From: a virus
Taxonomy: Duplodnaviria > Caudoviricetes
Direction: 5' to 3' (one strand)
IMG/VR virus record: IMGVR_UViG_3300028591_000164
Coordinates: 17,948-81,947 of that record
Length of the DNA stretch: 64,000 bases
How positions within the stretch are numbered: the stretch's first letter is position 1; every line of letters starts with the position of its first letter. Under the pieces are notes generated by a model. It was not told the DNA's origin. It was given only the letters and a program-made list of their open reading frames with translations, and ran no database searches. The position numbers were made by a program, and so were the translations under genes. Shown in pieces: positions 2-63,518 of the stretch.

Positions 2-3000
2 ATTGCTGATTTAAAGGCATTGGGAGTAATTCATTGGGATGATAAAACTCAAACTTATGTTGCCAATTTAAGTGAATTGTACAAGGTTCTTGGTGAAATG
101 GAAAAGAATCTTGGTGATACATAGTAGAAAAATAATATAGAAGAATTACGTAAACAAATTAAAGAAACATAGTTAGATACTTTGTCTACTGAAATTAAGT
201 CCACAACAAGTGGCATTAAAGATGGTTTTAGTACTTATGCGGATGCCGCGGCAGTATTAAAAACTATGAATCAAAATGTACAAAAGACTGCCGATGGAAA
301 ATAGGTAGATTTAGAATTTAGTGATTTATTTGAATGGAATGCATAGTTAAATAAATATGTATATAGCTTAGATGGAATTGCTACTAGATTTTCTTATTTA
401 AAGATTTAGCTTGATTAGGCAACTGCTGAACAAGATGTTAGTGAGATTGACCGCATTAATAAAGAAATAACCGCTTCATTAAAAGAAATTGGGCAATCGG
501 TTGATTTAATGAAGGCGTTTTCTATTTCTGGTACAACCTAGGAGCAAGCAAAAGCTAGATAGGATATTGCTAATGAAGTTGATAAATATAATGCCGCGGC
601 TTCTTAGATTGAAGGTGCGAAAGTTATTTCACAAGACTTATTAAATTTAGCTCTTGATGGTAGTATTTTTGCTTTAGATACTATATATACAACATTGGGT
701 CAAACATTAACGGCTGAGAACGTGAAGACAGTTCGTGCTGCTAAATCATCTAAGATAAAGACAGCTGCTGAAGCGCTTAATGCTGGCGTTGGAACTGTAA
801 TTGATTAGACAACAAGAGAATTAATTGGAAGTGCTGCTAATTTTTAGTCTATCGGTGCAGGAATGAGTGTTATTACTTATATTAAGGACCTTGAACAAGC
901 ACAATATAATTTATATAATGCTTTAAAAGAAACAAATCAAGCAACTGCACAAGAATTAAATGAAGCGGCATTAAGAGTACTACAAGCTCGTTATCAATCT
1001 GAAGATACTGGTTTAAGCTTATTATAGAATGGCGCGAGCATGAGTATTGAATAGTTTGCCGGTTTTATGGAAAAATTAGGATTACAAATTGGTGATCTTG
1101 ATAATTTTATAAGCACTGCTAATGATTATATTGAACGTATTGGTGGATCTAACATTAGAATCTATGATATGGTTGGTTTGTTAAGTAAGTATGGTTTAAG
1201 CCCAGATAGTTCTGAATTAGGTAGACAATATTATAGCGCTTGGTTAGATTCTATAATTTCCGCGGGCAATAAAGCTAAAGAGGATGCATTAAAAGTAATT
1301 ACTACTTTATAGTCTGCTTCTGGTGGCGATTAGATTAATGCTTTCGGTATTACTCGTTTAACTATTACTGACGAATTAGAAGCATAGTTAAATGAATTTG
1401 GTGCTATATTTGAAAATGGTATGATTACTCTTGCAAAAAATGCAGATATACCTAGTATCATTAGTCTATTATTACAATATGCTCAAAATAAAGATTTAAT
1501 TAGTGCCGATGACGCGGCGGAAGCGGTTGCAAAAACTATTACTAAAGATTAGGCAGCAACAACATTAGCATAGAATTATAATAAAGCTTCTATGGAAATG
1601 TTGAAAAATTTTGCGCGTGCAACTGGTATTGGATTAGAGCGTGTAGTGGCGATATTTAAGGATAATGGCAATGGCACATATAGTGGAGAAATTCCATTAG
1701 AAGATTTTGTTGAATTAATGGGATTAAAAGATACAACCGCAGGAAAGGAAATTTTACGTGCTTATGCTGAATCTTAGCGTAACGTATTAAGTAATTTTGT
1801 TTCTACCAGTATAACATCCATTACAAAAGGTACATAGAGAATTGCGATTACAGATGAAAATCGTGAACTTCTTGTTAAATTAGCTGAAAAATATGGCGGT
1901 TATATGGAAGAAGGTGTTGGTGAATACTTAATTACTGTTACAGAAGAAACTGCTGGTGGTTTTATTGAATCTATTTTAAATGATCCTGATTTAACTTCAT
2001 ATGAGAAAGGCGAAGCCGTTACTTAGGTTAGAAATGGTTTAAAATAGACCGGATTACATAATCTACTTACTACAATGGCTTCTAATTATGAAGATATTCC
2101 ATTTAATATACTAAATTCAGTTGCAGATTAGTTGGGTATAGGCGTTGAGCAATTATATGCTGAAAACGGACCTGTCAAATTTAATGGAGCAACTTAGAAA
2201 TATTCTACTTCACTTCAAGATTTATATCATTTTACTGAATAGTTATTAGATGAAGGTTCTATTAGTATTGATACCGCTAGTGCTGTATTTAAATAGATTG
2301 ACGATGCATTTGGTAATTTAACTCCAGAAAAACTATTTGGTACTTTTATATCTAGTAATGGCTCTATAACAAATGAAGTAATTACTACATTTGTTGAAGG
2401 ATGGAATAAAATTGCTGATGATTATTCTAAAATCGCTGCAGAAGATATTAGTCAGTTCGTAGTGGATGGAGAAATAGATACATCTACTATATTAGGATTA
2501 ATGGAAACATTTTAGGTTGAGATGGATGAAACCATTGCTAAATAGTTAAAGACTAAATTTGATTCTTATGTGACTGAAGTAAATGGTTTAGCATCTGAAA
2601 TAACAGGTGGTTTTACCGACGTCGCTAAAATGGGAACTATTTTAAAACAAGTCAATAGAAGATTTAGCCGTTCAGATGGTTCAGCATTAGAATTTGATGA
2701 TTTATTTGAATACAATGAAGAATTAAATAAATATGTTTATACCAGCACTGGTGTGGTAACTCGTATTCGTTCATTAAAACTTGGTTTAAGTGAAATTGCT
2801 GTTGGAACTAAAGAATATGATGAAGCATTGGTCAATTTTGATTTGGCAATGAAGCAATTCGGAATTTAGTTACATGAAATAGGCAATAATATTGATTTAA
2901 TGAGTATTGCTACAGCGGCTCCTGGATCAATTGAATTATAGAAAGCGGTTGAAAAGGCGCAAAGTGATTTATAGACATATAATACAGTCGCGGCAGAATT

Positions 3001-6000
3001 AGGTGAGACATTAATTGGGTCATTTAATTTTGATTAGCTTGCAGAGGGTGGTCTTGCCGCGGTTTAGTTAATGCAAGCTTTATATGAGAGTCTTGGTCGT
3101 GAGTTATCTACTGATGAAATTAAAAAGGTTTATCAGGGAGAAGTTAATAATTTATTTTCTGCTATGGAAAATCTTTAGAAAGTAACCAAAGGCGGATTAA
3201 TAGATAAAACTACTTATGAATTAGGTTAGACAGCTGGATTATTAACTGCTACAGAAATTGGTAATACTGGCATTTATGAAGTTACTTCTGTTGCTTATGA
3301 AAATTTAGCATAGGCTTATCAGAATTTATATTCTTCCTTAAAGGCAAGTGGAGAAGCAACCGCAGAATAGTTAAATTAGATTGCTTTAAAGATTTGGGGC
3401 AGTTATGGTTCTAAAGAATAGACAATTATTAGTTCTTTAAGTTCAGCAACAGGTATGACTTTTGAGCAATTTGGTACTATGCTTACTGAGTTAGGCATTG
3501 AGCTTACTGATAATACTATTGGAGAATATGCTGAGTATTTAACTTCCGTTGGTGGAAATAAATTAGTTATTTCTGATTTTAAGGGATTGATGGATAAACT
3601 TGGTTTTGATTCTACTTCAGAAGAATATCAAAAAGCATATAGTCAATATATTACATCATTAATTTCTTGGAATAATGAAGCAAATAGTAGAGTTGAAACC
3701 GCGATTTCAAATTTACAAAATGCTAAAGTTGGAGATTAGATTAATGTTTATGATCTAGTTGGCGATTTAGAGATAAGTAATGAAGAGTTAGGCTATAGTA
3801 TTAAAAATGGCATTTTAACAATTACTAAAGGAATGAATATTCCTGAAATAATTACTGCTGTTTTAGCTACTGCTGATACTAAAATAACTGCTGATTAGAA
3901 ATATTTAGCAGAACGTATGGCGAACGAATCTAGCATACAATAGCTTTGGTTAGATATTGGTAAAACTTATGATTCTGTATCATTTGATTTAATTAAAAAG
4001 TTAGCTTAGGCTATGGGTGCCACGATTGAAAGTGTTGAAACTACTTTCTTTACAAAAAATGCTGATGGCAGTTATGCTGGTAAATATAATATTCAAGATA
4101 TATTTACATAGTATGGTGTCGATTTAAATTCTCCGGCTGCGCAAGAAGTTTTACGTTTATAGATGCAAAATTATAGAGAGGCTGTTGATTCTGTTATTCA
4201 AAATGGATTAAATTCTATATCTAATGGAACATAGAGAATTACTAAAAATGCACAAACTGAAGCTATTTTTAATGCCGCAATTCAAGAGGGTACAACTTGG
4301 ATACAAGAGGGCATTGGAGAATATTTAATTAATATAACTAAAGATAATATAACACAATTTGAAGACTTTATTAATAGACAAACAACATTAACAATTAAGT
4401 AGAAATCTAATTATCTTGCTCAGGCTCATTAGAATATTGCTGATTAGAATATTTCTAAAGTATTAAGCAGTATTGTTGGAAATGTTAATTAGGTATCTTA
4501 CTAGACGGCGAGTGAGTTAGCATTATTATTAGGTAAAGATCTTGAAGAATTAACTACTACAATTTCTAGTGGAATTTTTAGTACATCTTCACAAGGAATT
4601 TTTAGTAAGTTTAATGAAGATACTCAAAGTTTTGAATTAGATGTAATTGCTTTTACTGAATGGATTAATACTTATCAAAAGGAATTAGGTATTAGTAGTG
4701 CTACTTTAAAGCAATTAAATAGTCAATTAAAACAATATAGTGCTAACGAAGTAATTAAGACATTTATTACTAATAGTAGTAATATTACTGATGATATGAT
4801 TACAAATCTATCTAATATTACTAATTTTAGTGAATAGTAGATTAAAGACCAAATATTGAGAAAAGAAGCGGGGCAATATAGGCTATCTTCTAAAGCTGCT
4901 TTGCAATTGGCTTAGTTATTTGGTGATGAAGAAAATGGTTTATTAGAAATTTGGAAAAATACATATTTAGACAATATTTTTAATGGTATTTCTAGTATAG
5001 GTGGTAATGTTTTTACTACTTCTTTTGATTATAATGGGTTAAAATAGTTAGTATAGGATATTTAGGATTGGACTGGACAAACATTTGATATTTCGCAATT
5101 AGCTTCTTATAATTCATAGCTATAGCAATTTGTATTATCTCAAGAAGGTGTTTTTGCTAAAATTCAATTAGCGCGCGAACAATTAAAGGCAGCGGGAATG
5201 GATAGTGATTTAATTGATGATCAAATATAGAGTATGATTGATCAATTTGGTAAATCTATAGATTTCTCTAAAGCATTTGATTTTAAAGCAATTGATGCTT
5301 CAAGCCAGAAACGTAATATGGCGCAATTGAATGCCAACGCTCAAGCTTATTATGAAATGTTATATGCCGCGGGTAATTGGTCAGAGGCTAGTTTATTTAG
5401 ATATAATTATGAAACTATGTTACAAGGTGGTTAGGCGGGATTAAATGCTGCTTATAAAGTATATGAATAGACGGGTCAAGAATTGACTGCTGATATTGCT
5501 AAAAAAATATTATAGGCCCCAGTTCAAAAATTATTAGACGGTAAATCTGCGCTTGATAGTAAAGTTGGAGATGTAATTAGTTCTGAAGCAGCGGCATTAG
5601 GTGTCGCCGCGGGTTATTTAGAAGTTAATGAAACTGTTGATGGTTTGGCTCAAGTAATTAAGATTAATAAAGATAATCTTGATAATGCGTTATGGGCCTA
5701 TCTTGATGGTATTCAATAGCAAATTGCTAATGGCGTAGAGGGATTAACAGAGGAATCTAATAATACAATAGTATCTATTTGGGAAGAACGTGCTAAAAAA
5801 GATTCTTCTGTTATTAATGCTTTTGATAAAGCTATGGGAATGACTTATAAAGAGTTTGGTGATATGGCAACAGAAGCTGGCTATACATTAACTGTTGGCT
5901 TACTAGACTAGTTTATAGGTGAAGGTATATTAGAAGATATTGGCAATGGAAAGGTTCGTATTTTAGACTTTGATAAATTTGCTGAAAAAATGGGATATAC

Positions 6001-9000
6001 CGATACTAATTCTGAAGCATATAAAGAAGCAAGAAGTAAATATCGTGATTCAATTATTTAGCTAAATAGTCAAACTCGTGATGATGTTTTAAAGAATATT
6101 AATGCTGTAAAAGATGCTAAAATTGGTGATTAGATTAATATTTCTGATATTACTGATTTATTAGGTGATGGTTTAACTAATTTCTTAACAGCAGAACTTT
6201 AGGAATATGGTGGCGTTCTAGATAATGGTATATTAACTATTTAGGAAGGAGCCAATATTTATGGTTTGGCTACTAGACTTGCACAAGTGGCATAGGCAAA
6301 AGGAGCTATTTTAGAGAATGATGTTGTTGCCCTTGGAGACGCATTATAGACTGCTGTTAGTTAGTATGTTGATGTTATTACAAAAGCATTGAGTGGCGGT
6401 TTAAAAGGTGGAGATTAGAAACAATTAATTGATTTTGCTAAAAATTTTAATATTGAATTAGGCGCTGATGACTTTGTTGAAACGGCCAATGGAATGAAAT
6501 TAACTATTGACGCTGCGATAGAATTATATAACACTTTAAAATCAATTAAAGGTATAGATACTTCTTCCTTGTTCTCTGGTCTTAAGGATGCTATAATAAA
6601 ACGAGATTAGATTACTACAATGGACGGCATTATGGCGAAAATTGCGTCTATTAATAATCAAATAGCAGCACAAAAAGCCGCGACTGGAAGCGTTAATGCG
6701 GAACTAGAACGAGAATTAGAATTGTATAAAGAAATTGCTAATGAAGCAATGATGAATGATCCTAATAAATATAAATTTATGGATCAAGCATTACCAGATA
6801 AATTTTAGGGTCCATTAAATTATTGGGATGCAACAGAAAAAATGATGTAGACCATGATTTCAAGTGCTAAGAGTGGCTACATGGGCGTACAAGATTTTTA
6901 TAATATTGCCACCGAAATGGAAAACCTTGCTAAATTGTCTGGTAAAACCATGAGTTTTATGGGCGTTGAAATTGGTGAAGGTGCAATGACCGCGGCTGAA
7001 TTAGTAGAAAAAGGTTTTTCTAATTTAAAAGAAGTCAGTGGTAAAGGTGCTTAGATCAACCTTAAAGGATTGGCCGATATTGGATTAAATCTAGCTATGA
7101 GTTCTAAACAAATGGCCGAGGGCGTAGAAGATGGCATTCATGCTATGGCCCAATCTCAAGTTGATATGCTTGACGGTTTAATTGGTTTACTTGAGGCAAT
7201 TGTTGCTATGGAAGCTATTAGTGATGTTGACACTAATGGAGATCATACCTTAGATGTCAGTGAAATTTTTGAGGTTGAGGGCGAAGATAAATTAAGCGAA
7301 AAAATGACTAGTTTTGCTAGCAAATTATTGGAAGATATTGAGAAAAGTGAAGAACTAAAAAAAGAGTTTGAAGCTTTGAAGATTGGTCAATATAGTCTTT
7401 ATGAAATTATTAAAGATGCTGCTAGTGGCACAAAAGGTATTAAAATGGCAACAGAAGAATATACTAATCTTTGGAATGCCTTATATCAAACCGCATTAGA
7501 CCAAGATTTTGATGCTTCTGATTTAATAGGAATAGTATAGCAGCTTTATAAAAATGGTTTAAAAGATATAGAATATACATTAAAAGATGGCCGTAAAATG
7601 GTTATAAAAAATGGTCATATTTTAGTATAGACCGAAGATAAAGAATGGGTTACAGATGATGGTGAAAAATTTTCTAGTGCAGATGCTGCTATTGCCCATA
7701 TGGTAAAATTAGAAAGTAAAAAAGAAATTGAAGATTTTAATAAAGGAAAAGAATCTAAAGGCGTAACTATTGATGCTAATGGTGAAACCGAAATTACCAT
7801 CAATGGGCAAATATATAAATTACATGTTAATACTAATGAAGATGGTTCGTTCTCTATGGATGGTGTTGAAGGTAGTTTCAAAACTCCTATAGAATTACTT
7901 AGAGCATGGGTGCGACAAACTTTTAAAGATACTAAATTTGCCAATGGATTAACGCCAAATGATTATACTGATGAACAATTAGATATTATAATGGGATTCA
8001 AAGTAGTACCAAAAATTACAGGGACATATCAATTAGCGGAAGATTAGCGTAAAAAACTTCGTGAATTATTAAATGAAAAAGGTATAACTACTAAAGAAGG
8101 ATTTATTTAGAATAAAGAAGCATTATCTTTAGAATTAGGAGTAGAACTTGATGATGACTTATTTAGTAGTGATGAAGCTTTATAGTTGTTTGCTGGTGTT
8201 TAGGTAACTGAAGCTGATACAAGTCAATTGGAAGATGTTCATGTTTAGGGTATTGTTGATATAATTTCTGTTGAGGGGCTGGATAAAAAAGTTAAAGAAT
8301 CCGTCGCTTTGGCATTATAGAATAATGAAACTTTCGCTTAGATGGATGAGCGAATGCGCGCAGAAGGTGCCACAGAAACATAGCGCTTATAGGCAATAGA
8401 AACACTCACAAAAGTCCCAGGACGAACTCTAACGAGAAATGATATAGAGGCTTTATAGTTAAATGGTAATAATATTCTTCCATTATTAGGAGCTTCGGGA
8501 GCGTTTAATGGTGGCTATTCAACGGAATGGTATACTAGTCGAAGTCTTGATCCAACAATTGGCATGGGATTAAAATATACTTATGATGACAGAACTAAAA
8601 CTTATGGTATTTATAGAAAAGATATAGAAGCAGAAATAAGTGCTCATCAAGGCTATTATGATTAGCTTGGCGTGACAGCTGATAATTTTGTTGACTTTGT
8701 AAATTATTTTCAAGGTACACATATAGAAGATATGTTACGAACGATTCCAGGCTTTTCTACTCGTTTTTGGGGGACTCCATTATTTGATTTTGCTAAAAAA
8801 ATGGGATAGTAGCAGAAAAAAGAAAAAGCTGAAAAAGAAGGCATAAGCATTGGTAATTTAGAGGAACAGAAATATGATTTTAATAAAAGGAGCGTAATAT
8901 TAGCACAAACAAATGCGGCTGAACTTGCGGCAAATAACTCTGCTTAGGTTGCAACAGATAAAATTATGAATGAATATGCATAGATTGTTGCTAAAGTCGA

Positions 9001-12000
9001 AAGAGAGCGTGATTTAGTACGTACAGATGCTGGCGGTAATTTTAATGGATATACTGATGAAGATTATTAGTCTTTTTTAGACAGCATTCATGAATCTAAT
9101 GCATATAAGAAGGCCCAAGAATTAGGCCATAATAGTGTAATAGAAGAGCAAGCTCGTCAAGCTGCATTAGCCTCTTAGACCAATAAATCTGATGAAGGTG
9201 AATATAGATATCTTCATGGGCAGTATTTAAAACAATTTACTGATGAATGGTTCGCTGGATTCCAAGAAGATTAGAATAAAAATAAACCATTAACTGATAC
9301 AGAAAAAAATGCTCAATCCGCGAATACGATGTCCACTGCAGCCGCTACTTTCCAATCTGCTGTTGCATCATTTGGCGCGGCTGTTTAGTCAATGATTATT
9401 GGAACTGTAGCAAATTAGCTTAATGGTAAAGATAATGTTGACGAAATAGAGCAAATTTTAACAGCTTTTGGTATGAATACAAATCAGCAAATAGAAGCAA
9501 TAAAAAATACTAATTTAATTACAAATCAAAATACTCTTGATGCTCTTAACAGATATGAAGAAGAAAAAGCAGAAGCGGCTGGCAAAGAATTCGTAAGTAC
9601 ATTTTTAAATGGAAAATCAATGAATGAAGTCGGTTTGCAAACTTTAATAAGTTTATCTGAAGCACTAACAACAAAATCAGAACAAGTAAAGGATAGTGAT
9701 CCTTTTTTATCTAAACATTTACTTGAATTACAAACATAGGCAGAGAGTGCAAAAGATTTAGCTTTGCGAGAAGCTCGAAGAGAAGCAAATGCTCAAATAA
9801 CTTCAACAACTCATGGGCCTACTACAAATACTACAAAAGAAAAAAGATTTGATCAAGTAAATTCGAGTTTAATAGATCATGGTTTAACTGAATCTATAAT
9901 AGCTTAGAGCCAAGCCAAAAATCAATTTATAATGGCAGAAACATAGTTGATAGAATAGCTTCAATAGTCTGCGGATAAAAGAACAAAATTTGCTGAATTT
10001 TCTAAAAATTGGGGCTCTTATCTTTAGGAACCAGAAAAAATGTTTAATGATAATATAGACTAGCAAAATAAATTTACTTAGGGTTATAATGAAATATTTA
10101 ATACTAATCTTTCTTTTTCTGATGCTTTAGATTAGGCTTAGGAGCAAATAAAAGCTTTAAGTGAAACTCCAATTGAATTGACACCAGAAGCAAATCTTGC
10201 CCAAGTATTAAGTTCCTTAGAATCAGTTAAGAATATTAATGGTACTATTACTTATACTAGTGTTATTAATAATTCTGCTAGAAATACTCAAAACATTACT
10301 CCCTAGGCCAAAGGTAATGTAGCCCTTGCTTCAGGTACTCGCACATTAATGGGCGAACTTGGCCCAGAACTTGTAGTTTCTAATGGTCAATATTTCCTTG
10401 CTGGACAAAATGGTGCAGAATTTGTTGATTTAGCAAAAGATGCAATTGTATTTAATCATATCCAGACTAAACGCTTATTATCTAATGGTTCAAGCGGACG
10501 TGGCACGCCATTAACTAATGAACGTAATGCTACTTCAATGGCAACTGGTAATGTACATGGTCCCGCTATGGCATCTGCTAGTTCTGTACTTTCTACATTA
10601 AAACAACTTCGTGCACAATGGCAAGCATTAGCTGATTTAAGTATTGCTGACCTCGCCGGTAAAGGCGGCGGAGGCGGCGGAGGAAATAAACAAATCCCTG
10701 GTTTTATCCGCGATGTTGAACGTTGGTACAATTGGTTGCAGAAGATTGCTGATCTTGAAAAAGAAATTACTTATCAAGAACAACTTCGTAATAAAATTCA
10801 ATCTGATATGATTTCTAATGGTAAAGCATATTATGCTAGTTAGAAGCAATCATATGAAGATATGAGACTATCTGCTATTACCAGTGAATCACTTTACTTG
10901 TCTCAAAAAGATTATTTTGAACAGCGTCGTGAATAGCTTAATAGTAAGGATTCTCCATTAAGTACTTTATATACATTTGATGAAAGCGGTCAGTTACATT
11001 TCCAAGAAGGAGCATATCAATGGTTAGCTGATTTGTTTAAGGCTGATGATTATGGTCATTAGACATTATCTCCAAAACAACAGTATGAAATGATTTTGGC
11101 TAAGAACCCACAATTTGCTTAGTTCATGAAATATGATAGTTCTGGTAAAGAGATTATCAGAAAAGACTATAAGAGCGATGATGAATACTATCTCGCTATG
11201 GTTAAAGCTTTCTCTGAGCGTATGGATTCGGAAAAAGAAGAAATGTAGGAATTATTTGATTCTCTACATGAGCAAGAACAAAAAGTACTTGAATAGATGT
11301 AGGCTATGAATGAATAGCTACAGGCTATGAAAGATAATCAAAAAGAAGTTGAAGAATCAGTCTTAAAGGCTATTGAAGAATCCCGTCAACGTTAGATTGA
11401 TGAGATGAAAGACACTAAGGAAGCTATTCAAAAGACTAATGAGGACTTTATTGACGGTTTAAATAAGTCTCTTGAAAAAGAGCGTCAAATGTATGAAGAT
11501 ACGCAGAAAGATTAGGAATTAGAGCGTAATCGTAGATAGCTTGCAATTCTAAAACGTTCTGGCGCGTCTGCTTCATAGATTGCTCAATTACAGGAGAAAG
11601 TTGATCAAGAGGCACGCGATTAGTACTTTGATAAGCAACAAGAGCAGATTGATGCGGTTAAAGAAGCATCCGATTTATAGCTTGAAAAAATGGACTTACA
11701 AATCGAACTTGCACAAGAGCAACTAGATTATGAAAAAGCGCATGGATTGCTTTGGGGTCAAGTTTATGATATAATGACAAAATCACCAGCAGAAATTGCT
11801 CAGTACATAAAAGATAATACGGCTGATTTTTGGAGCTATTCTCCGCTCAATAGTTCAGAAAAAGCAAATGAGATTCTTTTCAAAGCCGAGCAATGGGCGG
11901 AATTCCGTGATGATATTGACATGCAAAAAGCTTCATTGGGCATGATTAACTAGAATTTAGACATTTTCTTGGCTGCTATGAAAGAAATTCATGGCAAAGA

Positions 12001-54291: not shown

Positions 54292-54519
54292 TTATTTTTT
54301 GTCAAGTTTAAATTTTTCACATTTTTCAAAAAGTTTTTTATTATCATAAAAACATTCTATACAATTACCGTTCATACTATCCATAGCACCAAATTCACGG
54401 CAGCCAGTTAATTTTTCCATACGTTTACGTAAACTTTCTAATTCATATTCAGTATTGTGAAGAAAGATAATAATTTGTTCTTTTGTCTGTTCTTCTAAAA
54501 ATTCATCATCTGTATTCAT
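54292..54519 (-). CDS. Small Cys-containing hypothetical protein, 75 aa
   Basis: Track ORF trimmed to the ATG after AAGGAG. Confidence 0.5.
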   Translation of the reverse strand: MNTDDEFLEEQTKEQIIIFLHNTEYELESLRKRMEKLTGCREFGAMDSMNGNCIECFYDNKKLFEKCEKFKLDKK

Positions 54520-54551
54520 AAAATTTCTCCTTTTAAGTCGCGCGGCGACCA

Positions 54552-54738
54552 TATTTTTATTTATTGTTTTTATTTAATATTTTTATTTATATTTATATTA
54601 TATTTATATTACTCATACGATTTTCGTGGACATATCCACGATTTTCGTGGCAATGCCACGATTTTCGTGTATACCTTCCACGATTTTCGTGGATGGATGC
54701 CACGATTTTCGATGCAATGAATGCCACGATTTTCGTGG
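54552..54738. repeat. Iteron-like array: six copies of the 15-bp quasi-palindrome CCACGA-TTT-TCGTGG next to a ~60-bp almost pure A/T tract (probable replication origin)
   Basis: Copies start at 54615, 54636, 54656, 54678, 54700 and 54724. The AT tract is 54552-54611. The array is immediately downstream of an initiator-like wHTH gene. Confidence 0.8.
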
Positions 54739-55116
54739 TTATCCATCAGTTAAATCTTTTTTATTTTTTAAATTTTCATAATCCACTGGCAGCACAGGAG
54801 TAAAAGTATATACATTTTCTTTTCCCTCTACTGGTGTAATATATCCTTTGGCTTCAAGTTCTTTTCGCGCGGATGTGGCACCATTCTCTCCAAGTCCTAA
54901 TTCTTTTCTTATTGCCGCGGGAGAAAAGTAAAAATAATCTTTGCCATACCAGCGTAAAAGATAACGCCAGATTTTATAAGCATTTCCGTTTAAGTTGCGC
55001 ATCGCCGCGGCTTCCCATTTAAAATCAATAGGTTGAATAAAACGGTTTCCTTCTTTATGTGTTATTTTATCTAATTCTGTAAGATTTAGACGTAATTGGT
55101 TCATATAATTTGGCAT
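54739..55116 (-). CDS. Winged-helix replication-initiator-like protein, 125 aa
   Basis: LNGNAYKIWRYL...FSPAAIRKELGLGENGATSARKELEAKGYI resembles phage/plasmid Rep N-terminal wHTH domains; its stop abuts the iterons. Confidence 0.6.
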   Translation of the reverse strand: MPNYMNQLRLNLTELDKITHKEGNRFIQPIDFKWEAAAMRNLNGNAYKIWRYLLRWYGKDYFYFSPAAIRKELGLGENGATSARKELEAKGYITPVEGKENVYTFTPVLPVDYENLKNKKDLTDG

Positions 55117-55130
55117 ACTTTGGTTCCTCC

Positions 55131-55322
55131 TCAGCCGCTTTGCTTATGATTCTTACTGAGCTTAGATATTGCGGCCTGCAATTCTGGGCTATCTTCAAAT
55201 AGCCAGACATCAAATTGTGGATGATATTCATTTATATCCGTGCTAATAATTTTAAAGCCTTGCTTGCGTAATGCAAATGCTAGCCAACGGGTATAAATTT
55301 TATAGGTTTTAATCTCTGTCAT
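55131..55322 (-). CDS. Small phage protein (DUF5659-like), 63 aa
   Basis: YKIYTRWLAFALRKQGF...VWLFEDSPELQAAI. Confidence 0.5.
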   Translation of the reverse strand: MTEIKTYKIYTRWLAFALRKQGFKIISTDINEYHPQFDVWLFEDSPELQAAISKLSKNHKQSG

Positions 55323-55494
55323 TTTTCATAACCTCTTCCATTCTCATTAGTAAGCTCATAGATGGTACTCGTAATCCATTAAAAATGCGGCCTAAATGTG
55401 TACGACTACATTCTATTTTTTCTGCCGCGAGTTGATAAGTCCATCCTTTTTGTTTAATAAAATCATAGTATTTGTTAATAATTTCTTGTATCAT
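55309..55494 (-). CDS. XRE/Cro-type HTH regulator, 61 aa
   Basis: WTYQLAAEKIECSRTHLGRIFNGLRVPS. Confidence 0.75.
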   Translation of the reverse strand: MIQEIINKYYDFIKQKGWTYQLAAEKIECSRTHLGRIFNGLRVPSMSLLMRMEEVMKNDRD

Positions 55495-55605
55495 TTGACG
55501 TTTTTGGCACCTCCCTAATAAAAAGAAATATTCCTATCATAAGATAGGTAATATTTCTACATTTCATTTCTATTAAATTATAACATAAATTTTATTTTTA
55601 ATCAA

Positions 55606-56913
55606 TTATAGAATAAACATTAATACGAATAATGCTGCAAGAACATACATAAGCGGATGGATTTCTTTAAACTTTCCACGTACCATTTTAATTAGTACAT
55701 AAGAAATAAACCCAAATCCAAGTCCATTAGAAATTGAATATGTAAAAGGCATTGCTACAATTGTTAGGAATGCTGGAATTGCAATTTCTAAATCTGTCCA
55801 ATCAATGTATTTTACATTCTTAAACATTAGAACGCCAACAATAATTAATGCTGCGGCGGTTGCTGCTGATGGAACGACACCCGCGAATGGAGCAAGCACG
55901 CAAGAAAGTAGGAATAAAACACCAGTTACGATTGATGCCAATCCTGTGCGCGCTCCCGCTGCTATACCGGCGCTAGATTCTACGAAACTTGTGATAGTAC
56001 TAACACCTGTAAGTGCGCCAGTACAGGTTGCCGCCGCGTCAGCAATTAAAGCTTTTGTCATTGTTTTGTCTTTGACATTACCGTTCTCATCAATCATATC
56101 ACATTCAGCAAGTGTCGCGGTAAGTGTACCAACAGAATCGAAAGTATCAATAATTGCGAGTGTAAAAATAGAAGTAAGTAGCGGTACAACACCAGCAGAT
56201 AGTAAGCCAGTAAAAGATAATTTAAAGAAGACTGGCGCTACACTTACGCTGGCAAGAGAAGTAATATTAACATTTGTTACTCCCATTGGAATACCAATTA
56301 GTGTCGCAGCGATAATGCCAATAAGAATTGCGCCTTTTACTTTGAAAATCATTAATAGTGCTGTAATTGCTAGACCGATAATAGCTAGCAGACCAGGACC
56401 AGAAGTAATTAGACCAAGGTCTAGGATGCCATTAGCAGTCTGAATGATGCCAGCGTTAAAGAAAGCAATTAAAGTAACAAATAAGCCGATACCAACACTA
56501 ATTGCGCGTTTTAGTGCGGCTGGAATAACATCAATGATTTTGTTACGAAGCGGCGAGAGCATAATGCCAAGGAATACAAGACCGCTAATAAATGTAATAC
56601 CTAGGCATTGCTGCCAAGTATAGCCCATTTTTAAGCATAATGTATAAGCGAAAAATGCATTAACACCCAGTCCGGTGCTTTGTCCAATTGGCGCGTTGGC
56701 AATAAAGCCGGTTAATAGCGTGCCAATTGCAGAAGCTAGTGCTGTCGCGACTACTAGTGCGGTATAATCCATACCAGTTGCTCCAAGAATAGATGGATTA
56801 ACAACTAGAATGTATGCCATTGCAAGGAAGGTAACGAGTCCACCAATTACCTCGCGGCTAATAGTTGAACCGCGTTCAGTAATGTGAAAATGTGAATCAA
56901 GAAAGTTTCTCAT
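55606..56913 (-). CDS. NCS2 AzgA/PbuG-like purine (adenine/guanine/hypoxanthine) permease
   Basis: EVIGGLVTFLAMAYILVVNP, GLGVNAFFAY, DTFDSVGT, FVESSAGIAAGARTGL and MPFTYSI. Confidence 0.92.
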   Translation of the reverse strand: MRNFLDSHFHITERGSTISREVIGGLVTFLAMAYILVVNPSILGATGMDYTALVVATALASAIGTLLTGFIANAPIGQSTGLGVNAFFAYTLCLKMGYTWQQCLGITFISGLVFLGIMLSPLRNKIIDVIPAALKRAISVGIGLFVTLIAFFNAGIIQTANGILDLGLITSGPGLLAIIGLAITALLMIFKVKGAILIGIIAATLIGIPMGVTNVNITSLASVSVAPVFFKLSFTGLLSAGVVPLLTSIFTLAIIDTFDSVGTLTATLAECDMIDENGNVKDKTMTKALIADAAATCTGALTGVSTITSFVESSAGIAAGARTGLASIVTGVLFLLSCVLAPFAGVVPSAATAAALIIVGVLMFKNVKYIDWTDLEIAIPAFLTIVAMPFTYSISNGLGFGFISYVLIKMVRGKFKEIHPLMYVLAALFVLMFIL

Positions 56914-58187
56914 CTTTTTTTCTCCTTTAAAATAAGATTTAAAATAATACCAACAATCATTGCAAGTGCAGTGGTCCCAATGCTTACAATACCAAAATTA
57001 CAAACTGCCCCGGAAACACCAAGGGTTAAAACAGAAGCAATGATTGTGACATTTTTATTATTATTATTTAAATCAATATTATTATCTTTAATAGTGCGGA
57101 TACCACTTAATGTAATGTATCCATAAAGTACTGCGGCGCAGCCGCCGAAAATTGAGCTTGGAATACTTACTAAGAAGGCTTGAAGTGGTCCAAAGAATGT
57201 AGCAACGCCCATAATAACGGCGGCGAGACTAATTACATAGCGAGAACAGATTTTACTAAAACCCGTGGTTCCAACACTTTCGCCATAGCTTGTATTTGGT
57301 AATCCGCCAATAACACATCCGGCCGCAGTAGCAATACCATCACCAATTAGTGTCTTACCAAGTCCAGGATTCTGTGTTAGATCTGTGCCAATAACGGCGC
57401 TTAAAGCCTTATGGTCACTAGTATGTTCCGCGATTGTAACTAGTGATAGCGGTAGGAATAACATTAGAATCTGTGGTAGTAATGCCCAATCAAATGCGGC
57501 AAAGTGTATAAAAGCAAAATCAGGAATCTGAATCAACTTTACATTATTAAATACAGAGAAATCAATAATTGGTACACCACAAACTGTTAATATCGCGGCG
57601 AAAGCATATACAATTAAAATAGAAAATAGGAATGGTAGATTTTTAATAAATCCCTTACCATAGTGCGAAATTAACGCGGTAATTGCTAATGTTAGCATAC
57701 CAAGTCCAACGCCAAGCAAACTATATTCACCATTAATTTGGAAATAGGTTGGAATAAATGTAGCAAGATTTAAACCAATAACCGCGACGATTGGCCCGAT
57801 AACAACGGGCGGTAAAACTTTATTCATCCAATTGGTGCCGCATTTATTAATAATTGCTCCAATCACACAGTAGACAATACATACAATGGCACCGCCAATT
57901 GCTACTGCGGTATAATTTGGGGCTGCGCCTAACGCAAGTCCACCGATTACCGCGGCAACAAATGCGCCAGAAGAACTGATAAACATGGGGCTTTGACCAC
58001 GTGTACATAGCTGATAGATAAGAGTGCCGATACATGCGCCAAGCATCGCTGGTGCGATAGGTAGGCCGCAAATTTGTGGAATAAGAATAGTAGCGACGAA
58101 GCAAGCAACAACTTGCTGTAAAGCCGCTACAATTAAGCGTTTTACTGGTAGTTTGTCATTAATATTATATAACATATTACTTTCCAT
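56910..58187 (-). CDS. NCS2 UraA/PyrP-like uracil-xanthine permease
   Basis: PPVVIGPIVAVIGL, LVTIAEH, PGLGKTLIGDG, PNTSYGES and LYGYI..SGIR; ATGA overlap with the purine permease. Confidence 0.92.
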   Translation of the reverse strand: MESNMLYNINDKLPVKRLIVAALQQVVACFVATILIPQICGLPIAPAMLGACIGTLIYQLCTRGQSPMFISSSGAFVAAVIGGLALGAAPNYTAVAIGGAIVCIVYCVIGAIINKCGTNWMNKVLPPVVIGPIVAVIGLNLATFIPTYFQINGEYSLLGVGLGMLTLAITALISHYGKGFIKNLPFLFSILIVYAFAAILTVCGVPIIDFSVFNNVKLIQIPDFAFIHFAAFDWALLPQILMLFLPLSLVTIAEHTSDHKALSAVIGTDLTQNPGLGKTLIGDGIATAAGCVIGGLPNTSYGESVGTTGFSKICSRYVISLAAVIMGVATFFGPLQAFLVSIPSSIFGGCAAVLYGYITLSGIRTIKDNNIDLNNNNKNVTIIASVLTLGVSGAVCNFGIVSIGTTALAMIVGIILNLILKEKKR

Positions 58188-58365
58188 TTTTTACCTCACT
58201 AATATATTTTTCAATATATTCAATAAATTCTTTATCTTCCATATAGAAGCAATCTTTTGTTGAGAGAATATTAGACATAAGTTGAGCCAGCCGCCAATCT
58301 GGGACATTGCTCCAAGCCGCGGCTAGCATATCACAAATTTTGTTAATGCGATGAGTGTCTCTCAT
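58177..58365 (-). CDS. Hypothetical phage protein, 62 aa (MRD..RI...W...PDWRL type)
   Basis: Track ORF overlapping the permease start. Confidence 0.6.
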   Translation of the reverse strand: MRDTHRINKICDMLAAAWSNVPDWRLAQLMSNILSTKDCFYMEDKEFIEYIEKYISEVKNGK

Positions 58366-58366
58366 A

Positions 58367-59080
58367 TTATCTCCATTCTGAATTTAATTCTTCATCATTT
58401 TCATTTTCTTCTGCTGGTTCAACTTCAGTGTAAAAATAAAAATTATCATCTTTTTTAAATTGATTTTGTAAAATAGGAATAATTTCATCAAATGAATTAT
58501 GTAATGTATGGTCTGCTGTTGCGTATAAAATCATACCATATAGCATCTAATTGATAGAAAAACTGCGGCGCCAATCTTTTTCATTTAGATGGTTTGTGCG
58601 AATATCAAAATAATGAGCATAATTTTTCTTGGTAAGAATACGATAAATTTCTTCCCATACTTTATTGTGCATTTCATTAACTAATTCTAGACAATGCTCT
58701 TTATTTCCTTCATCAAATTCTTGGCGATGTTCTTCTATAAAAGCTTCTTCTAAATCGAGCAATTTATCTGCCATATATTTCCATCCATACAATACGCCCA
58801 TCTCACACATAGTACCAATGGCGCTCTGCTCTGGGCATAAAACAGTATAATCACTATTCCAAAGGCGTTCAATATCGGCTTCACAGATTTTTTCTGCTAA
58901 GTGATTATTTTCTTCTTCGGTCATACTAGACTTATCATTGATGGATTTATTCTAAACCGGGCTATATACCTCACCAGGTATTCCCGCAGCTTTGAATTTA
59001 TCATATTCTTCTTGGCGTGCGAGATTAGAACCATGTGTCATAATATCGCCGCCTAAATATCCGAGTGGTTCTTTATTCAT
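58367..59080 (-). CDS. Nucleoside 2'-deoxyribosyltransferase family protein #2, 237 aa (2 TAG)
   Basis: Manual extension: GYLGGD...VYSPV(Q)NKSIND...ADIERLWNSD...GTMCEMG...SIN(Q)MLYG; TAA at 58367-58369. Confidence 0.72.
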
Positions 59081-59243
59081 TCGAGTCCTCCTTATGGGTT
59101 AAATCCCAAAGAATATCATACATTTCTTGTTTAAATCCTTCTGGTTGCTGTTCTAGTGGTAGCATCCACCAAGCCAATCCAGCATCGGGATGACGATTAA
59201 AATATTCGTCTATCATTTCATCATAAATTGTATGTTCAGACAT
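59073..59243 (-). CDS. Hypothetical protein, 56 aa
   Basis: ATG after AGGAG; promoter TTGACT-17-TATAAT at 59269-59297. Confidence 0.55.
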   Translation of the reverse strand: MSEHTIYDEMIDEYFNRHPDAGLAWWMLPLEQQPEGFKQEMYDILWDLTHKEDSNE

Positions 59244-59300
59244 ATTTTTTCCTCCTAACTTTTTCTTTATTATAACATAGATTTTGGAAAAAGTCAAATA

Positions 59301-59333
59301 AAAAAAGTGGAGATAATATTTCTATTATCTCCA
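59301..59333 (-). terminator. Intrinsic terminator
   Basis: TGGAGATAAT-6-ATTATCTCCA followed by CTTTTTT on the minus strand. Confidence 0.8.
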
Positions 59334-59334
59334 T

Positions 59335-61674
59335 TTATAGATTATCTACATTACTTAATTGTTGCTATAATCCTTGAATAATATCTAACATTCCTGCCAT
59401 AAAAACTAAATTTATTGTTACTTTAGATTCTGCTTCAGATTTTACATAGTTCCAACGTTCTTCGGGAGAACTATATTGTTGAGCCGCTCTTAAAGTATTA
59501 TAACTAATTGGATTATGTAACTCTATTTTTGTAGAAGCGTTATTATAAATTATGCTTCTTTGTTTTTCTGTAATATCTTTTGCAACAAGTTCTAAATTAT
59601 TACATATCTCTGTTAATATATAAGATTGAGGAAAATATAAATCATTAACAAATATTAAATGTAATGCTCCAGGTGCGGCGGCGCGTACATTTTCAGAAAG
59701 ACTTTCTAAAAAATTTTTTGCATTAGCAAATCCATCATCAAATAATACCATAGCTGCGCCAGCGAGCAGATAATCTTTTAATGCTTGTTCATATCCACGT
59801 CCAATAACAGATCCATCAAAAGAATTTAATAATGCTGTAATAATTGTTTCAGCATCTAGTATGCTGATTCCACCAGCGTCTAACATGCTAACAATATTAG
59901 GAATAGCATCAACAACTTTTCCGCCGCCTCCTAATGATCCTTCATGGAATCCTTCATTTATATAAGCAGTGTCTTCATATTTTTTTACACTAATGCTAGT
60001 TGATAAAAATTTATATAATTGGTCTATTTTATCTTTTTCTTGCTGTGTTTTTGCTTTTTTAAGAGCTTTTTCTTTCTATCGAGCTAATTTTTTTAATTCA
60101 TCTACATATGCTTTTTTAGCTTCATCAATATTAGTATGGCCGCTACTTCTTTTATTATAATTAGTTAAAAAGTTTTTACCAAAATTATTAATTTTATTTG
60201 TAATTGCATCATATTGTTTTTTTGTCAATGTTTGTTGTAGTTCTTCAAATGGAACCGGATTTAAAAAATAAGAGATTAATAAATCAGATTTAAGTTTAAT
60301 TAATTTTCCTGGAATATAAGCCGGTCCGTAAGAATACATTGCTGCCTATACTGCTGCGATAATTTCTGCATAATCTGGGCCAGTAATATTAAAATTATTA
60401 ATACTAGAAGCTAATATGTCACGTATATCAATTGAATTGTTATTGACTAATGTTTGCTATAAAATCTAAATAAGCTAATTACGCTTTTCTTTTGCCGCAC
60501 CTTTTAAATTATTGAGTCTTTTTTTAATTTCCGCATGTAATGCTTTAGATAAAACACCCTTAAGTCCCGCGATTTGCTTGGGTGCTAATTCATTTTTTTT
60601 TCCGGTTTGGAGAGCATCATATGCATCTTTTATAGGGGTTATTAATTTATTATTTTTATAAGAAGTAGAAGAAAATAAATCTTGTCGTATATCATTATCT
60701 AATAATTCAAATAAATCTGCTAAATTTTCACCGTCTTTTTCTGCTTTCTAAATAAATTGCTCAAGTCGGTCAGATCCAGTTTTTTCTATCCATGTAACTG
60801 CATTTGTGTAAGACTCTTCTATATCTTGAGTGGCAATTGTTTTAATAGATTCGGCAATGGCTTGTGATAGTTTATTAATATTTAATTGTTCGTCGGATGC
60901 TAAAGCTGCCAAGGCCATATTAAAAACTTTATTTTTGATAGAAGAAACAGACGCGCCATGTGATATTGCTGATTGAGCTGCTGTGATAACATCATCGCTA
61001 AGTAAAATTTGCGATAACTAATTTTTAATATTTTTAATATTAAAATTATTTCCCTATACATGGCCATGATTTTGTTTTAATGCGGCCTATACGCCCTCTC
61101 TTACTCGTGGAAATTTTCCAAGACGGTGCATATGTTTAATAGATTTTTCACTGATAAAGGGAATATTATCTTCATTCTCTATTATATTTCCATCTTTATC
61201 TTTTTTTGGGCTGAATTTTATATCACTTGTATAATTGGTTAATGCTTTAGTAATTTCAGATAAATTAGATTCATGGATATGCAATGTTTCTTTATATTTT
61301 TCATAACTTGTATAGGCCACATTTATATCTTGAATAAATGTTAAATAATTAAAACTTCCATCTTTATTATAATCTTTTATTTCGACTCCTTGTTTACTGA
61401 CAAGTTCTATGAATTTTTTTTCTTGTGCTAATTCAGCTGAGGCCCAGTTTCTTAATTTATTTATATAATCTGCAATGTATGAAGTAACTCCTTCTTCATT
61501 TTGTTTTTCAATAGTAATTTTTGATAAATTAGATAAATTTGCAACCGCTGTATTTGCAACACTTATTCCAGCCGCTCCTTCTTCATACAAACTAGAAAAA
61601 TAGATGTAGCGCCCCCATGATGGTGGCTAAAAATTAAATTGCTATCGTCTTGGTATTGATTTTTTTTTAGCCAT
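59335..61674 (-). CDS. Large hypothetical protein, 779 aa (>=10 TAG)
   Basis: Track ORFs 61087-61590, 60076-60339 and 59365-59886 are in one frame. The gaps were read manually and contain only TAG. ATG at 61674; TAA at 59335-59337. Confidence 0.78.
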
Positions 61675-61686
61675 ATAATCACCAAC

Positions 61687-62913
61687 TTAATCTAACAAAT
61701 CCGCCATAGCCGCGACCTTACTTCTTTCAGTCTTTAATAGCTTCACCATTCCAAATAATGACTTTCCATATAATCTTTCAATCATCTTTGGGATACCGCT
61801 CATTTTTTCATCATAATAATCACATTGTTTAACATCGGCGCAGAAAATAATTTCACTACCTTCTGCAACACGTCCAAGTAATAATTGAATATTAGATGTT
61901 AATAAGTTTTCCGCTTCATCAACCACGATACAGCAATTCTTTAAGTCGCGGCCGCGAAGAGAAGATAAGTGCGCTGGCTCAATTTGTCCATTATCTAAAT
62001 ATTCTTCAAATTTTTCAATACCAATCATATCCTCAATCTGCATCAGCCAAGGATATAATTTGGAAACCGTATCTCCAGGTAATGTTCCTAATTTTCCCGC
62101 GCCTTTTACTTCTAGATTATTTTTAACAAAGACAATCTTATCAAAACGTCCAGTTTGCATTTCATGTAGCGCATAATTTAATGCAAGGAAACTTTTGCCT
62201 GTACCAAATTTAGCAAGACATAATTTAATAGGAACATCTTTATTTTGTAATAAATCCATATACATTTTCTGTTCAATATTGCGCGGCTTGATGCGTTCAC
62301 CAAGTACTGATGTAAATTCTTTGTAGGCGAGCGGCCTATATTTTGTACCATTCCAGAACATAACATCCTTTAATTCATCATTATCATTATATATCATAAT
62401 GAATTCATTATTTTGGCAATTAAATACATTTGCTGTGGGATTTGTGTATATTTCACTCAATGTATCCATATCTGGATAGCAACGACGCCAACCGCAATAA
62501 CGTTCAGTTAATTCTTTATCTTTAGGCACATAATATGTGCTCGTTATTTCTTTAATTTGTTTTGCGAATAAATATAAAGTACCATCAGAAGTAACAAAAT
62601 GGATGGGCTGTCGCATTTTCTTACTTAACAAAATTGCTTCACTTAAAATACGATGGTCATTTATATCAGTTAAGAAAGGATGCTTATGGATTTCTTTTAA
62701 AATATCCTTCTGTGCAAAACAAGTAAATGAGTATTCATTACTTTGAATAATTTCACGTACAACTTGCCGCGCGAAAAATTTCGTGTTATCATCTTTATTT
62801 CTGTCTGTCTTAATATTTTCTAATTCACTAATTACAATTGGGCTTATATAAATATTGAAAAAGCTATCCAAACCGCCGGCGAGGATAGCTGATGTATCTA
62901 AAAAGTTAATCAT
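61687..62913 (-). CDS. phoH: PIN-domain + PhoH-family ATPase
   Basis: FLDTS...E...ND..IL...FVTSD (PIN); AKFGTGKS, LRGRDL, VDEAEN and FCADVKQCD. Confidence 0.9.
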   Translation of the reverse strand: MINFLDTSAILAGGLDSFFNIYISPIVISELENIKTDRNKDDNTKFFARQVVREIIQSNEYSFTCFAQKDILKEIHKHPFLTDINDHRILSEAILLSKKMRQPIHFVTSDGTLYLFAKQIKEITSTYYVPKDKELTERYCGWRRCYPDMDTLSEIYTNPTANVFNCQNNEFIMIYNDNDELKDVMFWNGTKYRPLAYKEFTSVLGERIKPRNIEQKMYMDLLQNKDVPIKLCLAKFGTGKSFLALNYALHEMQTGRFDKIVFVKNNLEVKGAGKLGTLPGDTVSKLYPWLMQIEDMIGIEKFEEYLDNGQIEPAHLSSLRGRDLKNCCIVVDEAENLLTSNIQLLLGRVAEGSEIIFCADVKQCDYYDEKMSGIPKMIERLYGKSLFGMVKLLKTERSKVAAMADLLD

Positions 62914-63518
62914 TATTCTTCACTTCCAATAATTTCATCAATTAAATTTAATTCTTTCATTTCTTTCGCAGAAATAAACCATTGATGTCGAGTTTTTGAC
63001 TCATATAATTCTGCGGTTATATTTGTATTTTTAATAATAAAGTCTTTAATATCATTATCAACTTTATCATTAAACGCCATGAAGTCTTGTGCGGTCTTTG
63101 ATTCGCTAGATTCCATAGTAATATAACCATCATGTACCAAAGCATAGGTACTTGGATAGCACATACGATGCACATTATCGTTTTTCCCGCCCGCGGCTAA
63201 AATTACTGCGGACATAGAAGCGGCGTATCCGAGAACAATTATATTTAATTGTTTCTTATATTGCGCAATGTAATGTGCTAGAAAGAAACCATCTGCAACA
63301 GAGCCACCAGGAGAGTTAAGAATAAGTGTCACTGGCTCAACAGATGAATCGTTTTCAAACTCTTTTAGAGGCAGATAGATTTTTTCTACTATATCTTCAT
63401 CAATATAAGTATTAAAAAGAACTGTACGATTATCTAATAGTTGATGAAAATATTGATAATCTTTTGCGTTAAAACCTACTTGCTCTAAAAGAGTGGAAAT
63501 ATCAAAATCTAAAGCCAT
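62913..63518 (-). CDS. clpP: ClpP-like protease proteolytic subunit
   Basis: LILNSPGGSV, GYAASMSAVILAAG, LVH and WFISAKEMKELNLIDEI. Confidence 0.88.
   Translation of the reverse strand: MALDFDISTLLEQVGFNAKDYQYFHQLLDNRTVLFNTYIDEDIVEKIYLPLKEFENDSSVEPVTLILNSPGGSVADGFFLAHYIAQYKKQLNIIVLGYAASMSAVILAAGGKNDNVHRMCYPSTYALVHDGYITMESSESKTAQDFMAFNDKVDNDIKDFIIKNTNITAELYESKTRHQWFISAKEMKELNLIDEIIGSEE

Follow-up and report, generated by a model that had tools for sequence, protein, structure and literature searches.

Comparison with iterated palindromes and very-short-patch repair

The subject of this analysis is an excess of CCGCGG, and of CGCG-centred words in general, on a 64,000-nucleotide stretch of viral DNA (IMG/VR record IMGVR_UViG_3300028591_000164; the whole stretch is termed the window below), for which the closest described systems are the highly iterated palindromes (HIPs) of cyanobacteria and the very-short-patch repair of Escherichia coli. 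The former comprise HIP1 (GCGATCGC) and the alternate HIPs (PMC4390886, PMC5861425). They are similar to the phage words in being short G/C-rich palindromes that are many-fold over-represented, that lie in coding sequence of all frames as well as in spacers, and that are specific to lineages, different words being favoured in related ones. Relative to control palindromes, HIP1 sites show higher conservation (PMC5861425); they are periodically spaced, and cognate orphan methyltransferases co-occur with them (PMC4390886). In the phage, however, conservation is at the level of controls, sites are randomly spaced and the three Pfam families searched yielded no cognate methyltransferase. Furthermore, the word here is of 4-6 bp with its hexamer explained by sub-words, and it is carried by a phage.

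Very-short-patch repair in E. coli, which depends on Dcm and Vsr, has reportedly enriched CCWGG and depleted words of the CTAG type. It is a non-adaptive, context-specific correction of T:G to C:G that raises a short palindrome genome-wide, and it predicts a raised rate of gain without conservation of sites, as was found for the phage. A further likeness is the raised fixation of T>C and A>G changes in a CGCG context (0.135 versus 0.037), with no such rise for GGCC or CCGG. Unlike E. coli, the phage has no Vsr/Dcm-type gene, its T-containing precursor words are not depleted, and the context would need a CGCG-like recognition. The phage bias resembles both HIPs and very-short-patch repair, yet departs from each in some defining properties.

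Excess of CCGCGG on the contig

The source contig is viral, with a length of 81,947 bp and 34% G+C, and represents an AT-rich rumen phage; the window covers its bases 17,948-81,947. An exact search located 45 CCGCGG sites in the window, close to the approximately 44 reported in a preliminary description of this DNA, and 57 on the whole contig. The sites (no strand) span 246..63196 and begin at positions 246, 594, 1260, 3057, 5367, 5607, 6990, 12639, 14476, 15344, 15878, 17946, 18701, 18902, 21789, 23473, 24624, 24837, 25961, 28299, 29038, 29122, 29884, 30096, 32095, 33379, 34433, 34531, 34766, 35699, 37052, 37868, 38601, 39590, 44269, 46224, 46662, 47183, 47292, 51558, 54915, 55005, 57950, 58317 and 63191. 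Coordinates given previously were right with the exception of 54905, for which the correct position is 54915. Both arms carry the site, as had been described, with 14 copies in the plus arm and 31 in the minus arm. Other hexamers composed of G and C such as CCCGGG (one copy) and GCCGGC (four) were indeed rare in the window, and runs of CGCG were conspicuous, with 34 copies of CGCGCG, 12 of GCGCGCG and 289 of CGCG against 71 of GGCC and 51 of CCGG.

Markov models of order 0, 1, 2, 3 and 4 gave expectations of 2.1, 3.9, 10.6, 36 and 49 CCGCGG sites on the contig, against the 57 observed. The site is approximately 27-fold over composition, yet 1.16-fold (z=1.7) over the prediction from its own 4- and 5-mers. 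Shuffles that preserve amino acids and codon usage, under which the preliminary description had considered that the excess might disappear, were run and the excess persisted: 9.7±2.9 sites were expected with synonymous codons permuted inside each gene (z=16), and 19.5 when the 2-3 and 3-1 dinucleotides were held as well (z=9.7). When the permutation was limited to stretches of 100, 40 and 20 codons, z remained at 14, 9 and 7, respectively, with GGCC flat, leading to the rejection of regional heterogeneity in third-position G+C as the cause. A Markov chain Monte Carlo (MCMC) shuffle that also fixed 22 depleted words at their observed counts (GATC, TCGA, TGCA, AGG-words and several hexamers) gave expectations of 12.4±3.1 for CCGCGG and 151 for CGCG, by which an origin as a by-product of avoiding restriction sites or Shine-Dalgarno (SD)-like words was rejected. 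Repeat copies were rejected as a source, the flanks of all CCGCGG sites being different and the sites therefore independent. CCGCGG was found to fill 18% of the places that are synonymously possible for it, with 23% for CGCGCG and 14% for GCGCGC; all-G/C palindromic hexamers without a CGCG core fill 0-4%. The excess of CCGCGG is real, and is neither a codon artefact nor a by-product of the avoidance of other words.

CGCG-centred words as the unit of the bias

CCGCGG is not a unit in its own right, because Markov models of order 3 and 4 already account for 36 and 49 of its 57 copies, respectively. It is the overlap product of a genome-wide bias to CGCG-centred words (CGCG, CCGC/GCGG, GCGC), which extends over the whole window (1..64000, no strand; 289 CGCG in the window and 370 on the contig, or 4.5 per kb). 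The codon shuffle gave 158 expected CGCG against 366 observed (z=20.5), bearing out the earlier remark that the excess applies to CGCG generally. The same held for CCGC (243 observed, 108 expected), GCGG (349, 235), GCGC (271, 162), CCGCG (124, 29) and CGCGG (142, 41), with CGCGGC/GCCGCG, CCGCGG and CGCGCG being further top deviant words. GGCC (94 observed, 91 expected) and CCGG (62, 74) were at expectation, with CCCC and GGGG likewise not enriched. Since GGCC, CCGG, CCCC and GGGG were at or below expectation, general clustering of G/C for duplex stability was rejected, and a general preference for alternating purine-pyrimidine (Z-DNA-type) sequence was rejected with CACG, CGTG, TGCG and GCGT not enriched.

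The flank preference of CGCG follows B-CGCG-V, with ratios of 6.0x for CCGCGG, 4.3x for CCGCGA, 4.2x for TCGCGC, 3.5x for TCGCGG and 2.7x for GCGCGC, and with TCGCGA (0.65x) and ACGCGT (0.27x) depleted as ordinary restriction sites are. Around CCGCGG there was a weak R-CCGCGG-Y preference at ±1 and nothing farther out, and a longer motif was rejected on this basis.

Each of CGCG, CCGC, GCGG, GCGC, CCGCGG and CGCGCG was found to be enriched in all three frames, the counts for CGCG under the codon shuffle being 117 observed against 82 expected, 55 against 20 and 194 against 57. This excludes an artefact of Ala/Thr-Ala codon pairs, a caveat raised in the preliminary description. All 57 CCGCGG sites are coding, 41 of them in the frame NCC-GCG-GNN, 13 in NNC-CGC-GGN and three in CCG-CGG. 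At codon junctions (marked by the hyphen) enrichment was 1.62x for G-C, 1.96x for C-GC and 3.4x for C-GCG. Enrichment of the G-C junction agrees with the widely preferred nnGCnn pattern, while the excess at C-GC is the reverse of what is common, nnCGCn being among the most commonly avoided codon-pair patterns in 138 organisms (PMC2585594). Intergenic DNA showed 16 CGCG against 3.1 expected and 30 CCGC and GCGG against 6.7, with seven GGCC and one CCGG against 3.1 each; this sample is small, at approximately 5 kb from the contig and close relatives with one unusual promoter-bearing region left out. Acting in all three frames and in intergenic DNA, the excess is one at the DNA level.

The bias was also found to be independent of gene class. 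The ratio of observed to shuffled CGCG was 3.07 (35 versus 11.4) for a giant open reading frame (ORF) of 6,220 amino acids, the 3' part of which lies at 2..12817 on the plus strand (ORF list under TAG=Q), 2.47 for low-GC mobile and accessory genes, and 2.26 for the rest; by arm it was 2.33 (plus) and 2.23 (minus). The giant ORF has a low density of CGCG per kb, with the same relative excess as elsewhere. Placement of CCGCGG is random, its nearest-neighbour spacing being exponential (coefficient of variation 0.97, Kolmogorov-Smirnov p=0.98) with no quasi-periodicity. Strand polarity was absent, CGCGG and CCGCG numbering 56 and 51 in the plus arm and 78 and 85 in the minus arm. Known Firmicute Chi words were not enriched (six copies of GCGCGTG, ten of GAAGCGG), and a Chi-like recombination or protection sequence was rejected given that no strand-polar word and no periodic spacing were found.

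Avoidance of other palindromes

CGCG, CCGCGG and CGCGCG are targets of common enzymes (BstUI/FnuDII-type, SacII-type), and phages normally purge short palindromes. The depletion of palindromes, which had been put forward as the phage norm, was evident on the contig for words that contain A/T, with GATC at 68 copies against 202-209 expected, TCGA at 37 against 123 and TGCA at 200 against 316. Among hexamers, ATCGAT, TTCGAA and GCATGC were each absent, with two copies of CTTAAG and three each of GATATC and CTGCAG. Restriction-site avoidance as known in phages is thus clear here for GATC, TCGA, TGCA, ATCGAT, TTCGAA and GCATGC, and even for TCGCGA and ACGCGT; in contrast, CGCG, CCGCGG and CGCGCG go the opposite way. 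The SD-like words AGGA, GAGG, AGGT and CAGG were depleted inside genes.

Turnover of sites

Many relatives of the contig are present in IMG/VR. The contig itself was rated 47% complete; relative G002, of 179 kb, was rated 100% complete. Over the aligned parts, nucleotide identity to the contig was approximately 94% for G001, 89% for G002 and 76% for G003, and these alignments cover 36, 50 and 27 kb, respectively. They were used to address the question of selection or REPLENISHMENT, with the logic applied to HIP1, according to which a selected motif is conserved above controls while a neutrally replenished motif is not (PMC5861425).

CGCG was kept at frequencies of 0.75, 0.66 and 0.16 in G001, G002 and G003, and other all-G/C 4-mers at 0.69, 0.61 and 0.25; the corresponding values were 0.73, 0.51 and 0.16 for CCGCGG and 0.61, 0.55 and 0.16 for its control words. 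Conservation of third-position G/C inside versus outside CGCG was 0.80 versus 0.76, 0.72 versus 0.67 and 0.26 versus 0.40 in the same order. CGCG and CCGCGG sites are conserved no better than control words. With 49 copies expected from 4- and 5-mers against 57 found (z=1.7), random placement and this lack of extra conservation, the view of CCGCGG as a discrete recognition site was not upheld.

Changes at third codon positions were then polarised over 31 kb for the branches of the contig (G000) and of G001, G002 serving as outgroup. Among transitions from A/T to G/C (W>S), the rate of fixation was 0.135 where the change gave rise to CGCG and 0.037 otherwise (3.6x, p=2e-11). The ratio was 3.4x for those creating GCGC, 1.9x for CCGC/GCGG and 1.0x for GGCC/CCGG. 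Loss was normal, as S>W transitions destroying CGCG were fixed at 0.085 compared with 0.084 elsewhere, and it was equal at the inner and outer positions of the word (0.083 versus 0.081), which argues against one hypermutable methylated cytosine. Turnover was fast. Gains and losses of CGCG numbered 38 and 42, a near balance that places CGCG close to steady state; owing to parallel losses, the number of gains may be too high by a few events. A model of selection only, with uniform mutation and S of about 3.5 to fit the gains, predicts 4.4 losses against the 42 observed (p=2e-27). The proposal that modified CGCG is protected from AT-biased mutation is contradicted by a loss inside CGCG that matches that elsewhere and is equal at inner and outer positions.

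In the three-way alignment of G000, G001 and G002, CpG at third positions was observed to turn over faster than other G/C in both directions, with loss at 0.118 versus 0.070 and gain at 0.051 versus 0.035. Loss of CpG in that alignment peaks in TCGA, CCGG and ACGG/CCGT contexts.

Distribution among related phages and bacteria

Ratios of observed to expected counts were obtained for other genomes and sets against the same codon shuffle. For the contig these were 2.35x for CGCG and 6x for CCGCGG, followed by approximately 1.85x and 4-4.5x for G001 and G002, and 1.8x and 4x for G003. Relatives that are approximately 70% identical in DNA had 1.3-1.8x for CGCG and approximately 1x for CCGCGG, and the code-15 gut phage Phass-1 had 1.2x and 2.6x (nine CCGCGG against 3.5). 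Enterococcus phage EF1 was devoid of both words, with 15 CGCG and 0.2 CCGCGG expected. In distant relatives GCGC was at or above CGCG. The parts of G002 that lie beyond the contig were equally rich (19 and 17 CCGCGG per 20 kb). The bias is clade-specific: the wider phage family has a modest excess of CGCG/GCGC, and the sub-clade of the contig a strong extra push to CGCG and CCGCGG.

Sixteen bacterial loci examined with the codon shuffle gave 0.02-1.42x for CGCG and at most 2.4x for CCGCGG. Against plain composition, CGCG in 70 bacterial loci spanned 0 to 3.75, lying close to zero in many and near 3 in several Clostridia loci; the phage value against base composition was 5.3 (370 against approximately 70).

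Possible origins of the bias

The CGCG bias is best explained by a context-biased process of substitution, repair or conversion acting on the DNA, a reading to which we give about an even chance, and we infer a driver that lies in mutation or repair, not in selection. Words of the TGCG/CACG type would be turned into CGCG through sequence-context-biased substitution, possibly by biased correction of T:G/A:C mismatches or heteroduplexes, or by errors that the phage's own family-C replicase makes preferentially in certain contexts. At steady state, new CGCG copies would continually be created and old ones not preserved, with ordinary decay offsetting the gains. Several points weigh against this explanation. 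No enzyme able to drive the bias was found, G002 having no match to Vsr, PF00145, PF01555 or PF02086, with other families not searched. The depletion of T-variants expected of very-short-patch repair was absent, as TGCG and CGCA together numbered 459 against 419 expected (TGCG 216 against 252, CGCA 243 against 166, CACG 72 against 74 and CGTG 133 against 140). The loss of cytosines in CGCG (0.085) was below that of CpGs elsewhere (approximately 0.136), as weak selection also predicts; those other CpG contexts were lost faster (0.10-0.23), partly since there is selection against words of the TCGA type, and CGCG is somewhat protected by comparison. Moreover, the polarisation rests on one outgroup and a three-way alignment of approximately 31 kb, and high gain with normal loss would also be seen if CGCG were both hypermutable (methylated) and under selection.

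Weak selection on the density of CGCG-type words is possible, though distinctly doubtful. Under it many interchangeable sites of low specificity would be kept in total with no single copy being important, and they might, as tentatively, be read by a DNA-compacting or packaging protein, or serve as a self-mark or as a decoy for host defence or a restriction enzyme. It would suit an excess that is far over bacterial baselines (CGCG 2.3x versus 1.07-1.42x, CCGCGG 6x versus at most 2.4x) and confined to one clade, the purging by the phage of other palindromes but not of CCGCGG, the less frequent loss of CpGs in CGCG (0.085 versus approximately 0.136), and a hexamer slightly over its sub-word expectation (57 versus 49), with 16 copies against 8.6 of the R-CCGCGG-Y extension GCCGCGGC. 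However, density selection alone cannot combine a gain raised 3.6x with a normal rate of loss (42 losses were observed where 4.4 are predicted); positional conservation and periodicity are lacking, enrichment is spread over a diffuse family of words instead of being confined to one motif, only 18% of the synonymous opportunities for CCGCGG are used, and no candidate reader was found. The binding-mark and decoy ideas of the preliminary description find no support in discrete CCGCGG sites, which are placed at random and no better conserved than control words, and could stand solely as weak selection on density. It is similarly improbable that CGCG-type words are a deliberately maintained, high-density mark of the phage lineage that a phage or host factor reads. 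Such a mark might come about by weak copy-number selection atop a hypermutable, possibly modified CGCG, and might act in self/non-self discrimination, in compaction for an unusually large virion or as a decoy saturating a CGCG-directed host defence, a reading on which we place equally little weight; if true, it would give phages an equivalent of cyanobacterial HIPs or DNA uptake sequences.

A signature driven by the host, in which the phage would mirror a host bias (for example through a host CGCG methyltransferase and T:G-mismatch repair acting on phage DNA), appears unlikely. CGCG usage does vary greatly among gut and rumen bacteria (0 to 3.75 in the 70 loci, several Clostridia near 3), the preferred word shifts from GCGC to CGCG/CCGCGG between phage sub-clades as a host switch would give, and cyanobacterial alternate iterated palindromes track methyltransferase specificity (PMC4390886). 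Against this, no bacterial locus reaches the phage value, whether measured against composition (5.3) or codon shuffles, and the one AT-rich rumen Clostridia metagenome-assembled genome (MAG) with binned related phage contigs is CGCG-poor (0.08-0.41), although binning is weak evidence of a host and those contigs are of a distant sub-clade. Two further explanations are largely excluded. A translational effect of codon pairs or codon usage, with NCC-GCG-GNN (Ala/Thr-Ala pairs) and the codons GCG and CGC preferred, would account for the 41 of 57 CCGCGG sites in the NCC-GCG-G frame, for GCG making up 23% of Ala codons compared with 6% for ACG and 3% for TCG in their families, and for the tRNA-Ala(UGC) and tRNA-Arg(ACG) of a close relative; it is nonetheless extremely improbable, as the excess survives amino-acid- and codon-usage-preserving shuffles, is significant in all three frames and in intergenic DNA, and involves an nnC-GCn junction (1.96x; C-GCG 3.4x) that is commonly avoided across 138 organisms (PMC2585594). 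Very improbable too is the idea that CGCG/CCGCGG carries methylation or another modification by which its cytosines escape AT-biased decay. The survival of G/C clusters in an AT-rich genome, and of all-G/C palindromes unpurged where those containing A/T are purged, would be in keeping with it; loss inside CGCG, however, proceeds at the average rate for the genome, with no difference between inner and outer positions, G002 has no PF00145, PF01555 or PF02086 match, and GGCC and CCGG are not enriched.

Palindromes of G and C of 4-6 bp are avoided by many gut bacteria and here lie several times over expectation in a phage that purges palindromes. Should a context-specific repair or replication bias be responsible, this would be a clean natural case in which a 'motif' is written into a genome by neutral means, and a caution for motif-based inference and for host prediction from k-mers. 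Selection on density would point instead to a new DNA-reading system in a very abundant, TAG-recoded family of rumen phages.

DNA methyltransferase and possible host association

The window encodes a C5 cytosine methyltransferase with one in-frame TAG (48300..49277, minus strand), a full-length homologue of M.HaeIII (GGCC) that matches PDB 1DCT with E=3e-121 over residues 1-322, target-recognition domain included. CCGCGG is accordingly distinct from the GGCC target of the methylase, as the preliminary description had it. An ORF without a Pfam family overlaps the methylase start (49274..50086, minus strand) and contains no CGCG in 813 bp. PF00145 matches were found on the contig alone and not in G001-G003, of which G002 is complete; the methylase and its neighbour are syntenic in a diverged phage contig (L042), whose methylase lacks an in-frame TAG. 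Together they form an accessory cassette, the methylase not being linked to the CGCG bias. The methylase was rejected as the cause of the bias, as it is of the GGCC type and the complete relative G002 lacks it. Counts of GGCC in the phage are neither raised nor lowered, although most bacterial loci with methylase homologues show a strong depletion of this word.

The complete relative G002, which shares the bias, had no match to PF00145, PF01555 or PF02086, other methyltransferase families not being searched, and a Vsr-type endonuclease (PF03852) was absent from G000-G003. A CGCG-specific methyltransferase elsewhere in the genome, for which a search had been suggested previously, was accordingly not found within these three families in G002, the one methylase of the contig being GGCC-type, with the other families not searched. 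Any CGCG methylation would probably have to come from the host.

Queries directed at the host with a permease gave no relative in genome contigs, and the best 120 protein matches were metagenome proteins of 83-98% identity, evidently copies from related phages. The best 'bacterial' match of the methylase, L042, is a piece of syntenic phage DNA that binning had placed in a rumen Clostridia MAG; five 20-kb samples from large standard-code contigs of this MAG were CGCG-poor (observed/expected 0.08-0.41). This MAG is not to be taken as the host of the phage, the link to its sub-clade being weak. In the 1.7 Mb rumen MAG 'Clostridia bacterium RGIG6952' (G004), TAG-recoded phage-like contigs were observed among C10, C37 and C41, with ORF coverage of C37 and C41 higher under code 15 and the standard-code contigs alongside at 29-33% G+C. 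Either these phage-like contigs are contaminants from binning, or they give an indication of the host of their sub-clade.

General features of the contig and its relatives

Coverage of the contig by long ORFs rose from 67% to 98% once TAG was counted as a sense codon, and 188 in-frame TAG codons occur within the 6,220-residue ORF (ORF list, TAG=Q). The share of TAG among Gln codons is 28% overall, and TAG is rare in many genes of the minus arm. The portal protein is nearest to those of Firmicutes siphophages and of Phass-1. The minus arm forms a module for replication and nucleotide metabolism that encodes a split family-C polymerase, RecJ, DnaB, GyrA/B, NrdDG, a dUTPase, two deoxyribosyltransferase-like proteins, two nucleobase permeases, PhoH and ClpP. 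The two polymerase ORFs lie at 28604-33599 of the window (minus strand) with an HNH-AP2 endonuclease ORF between them (30884-31642), and GIY-YIG endonuclease ORFs are located at 22829-23761 and 47413-48228. Two small DNA-binding proteins of the phage are encoded at 41156-41524 and 54739-55116 of the window.

Position 1 of the contig is exactly an ATG and every relative aligns from contig position 1-25, which suggests that the contig was cut where a gene begins. Compared with the contig, G002 shows a circular permutation. In a region of G002 that is not in the contig (L041 11625-18121) an array of 12 tRNAs was identified, including Ala(UGC), Arg(ACG) and Gln(UUG), with no amber-suppressor tRNA within the scanned stretches of G002. 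Intergenic DNA of the relatives was unusually dense in CCGG/GCCGGC at L009 ~650-1250 and L005 ~5350-5950, upstream of terminase-side genes. The L009 region contains two copies of one promoter-like element (TTGACA..ACCGGCC..TATACT), which are preceded by A/T tracts.

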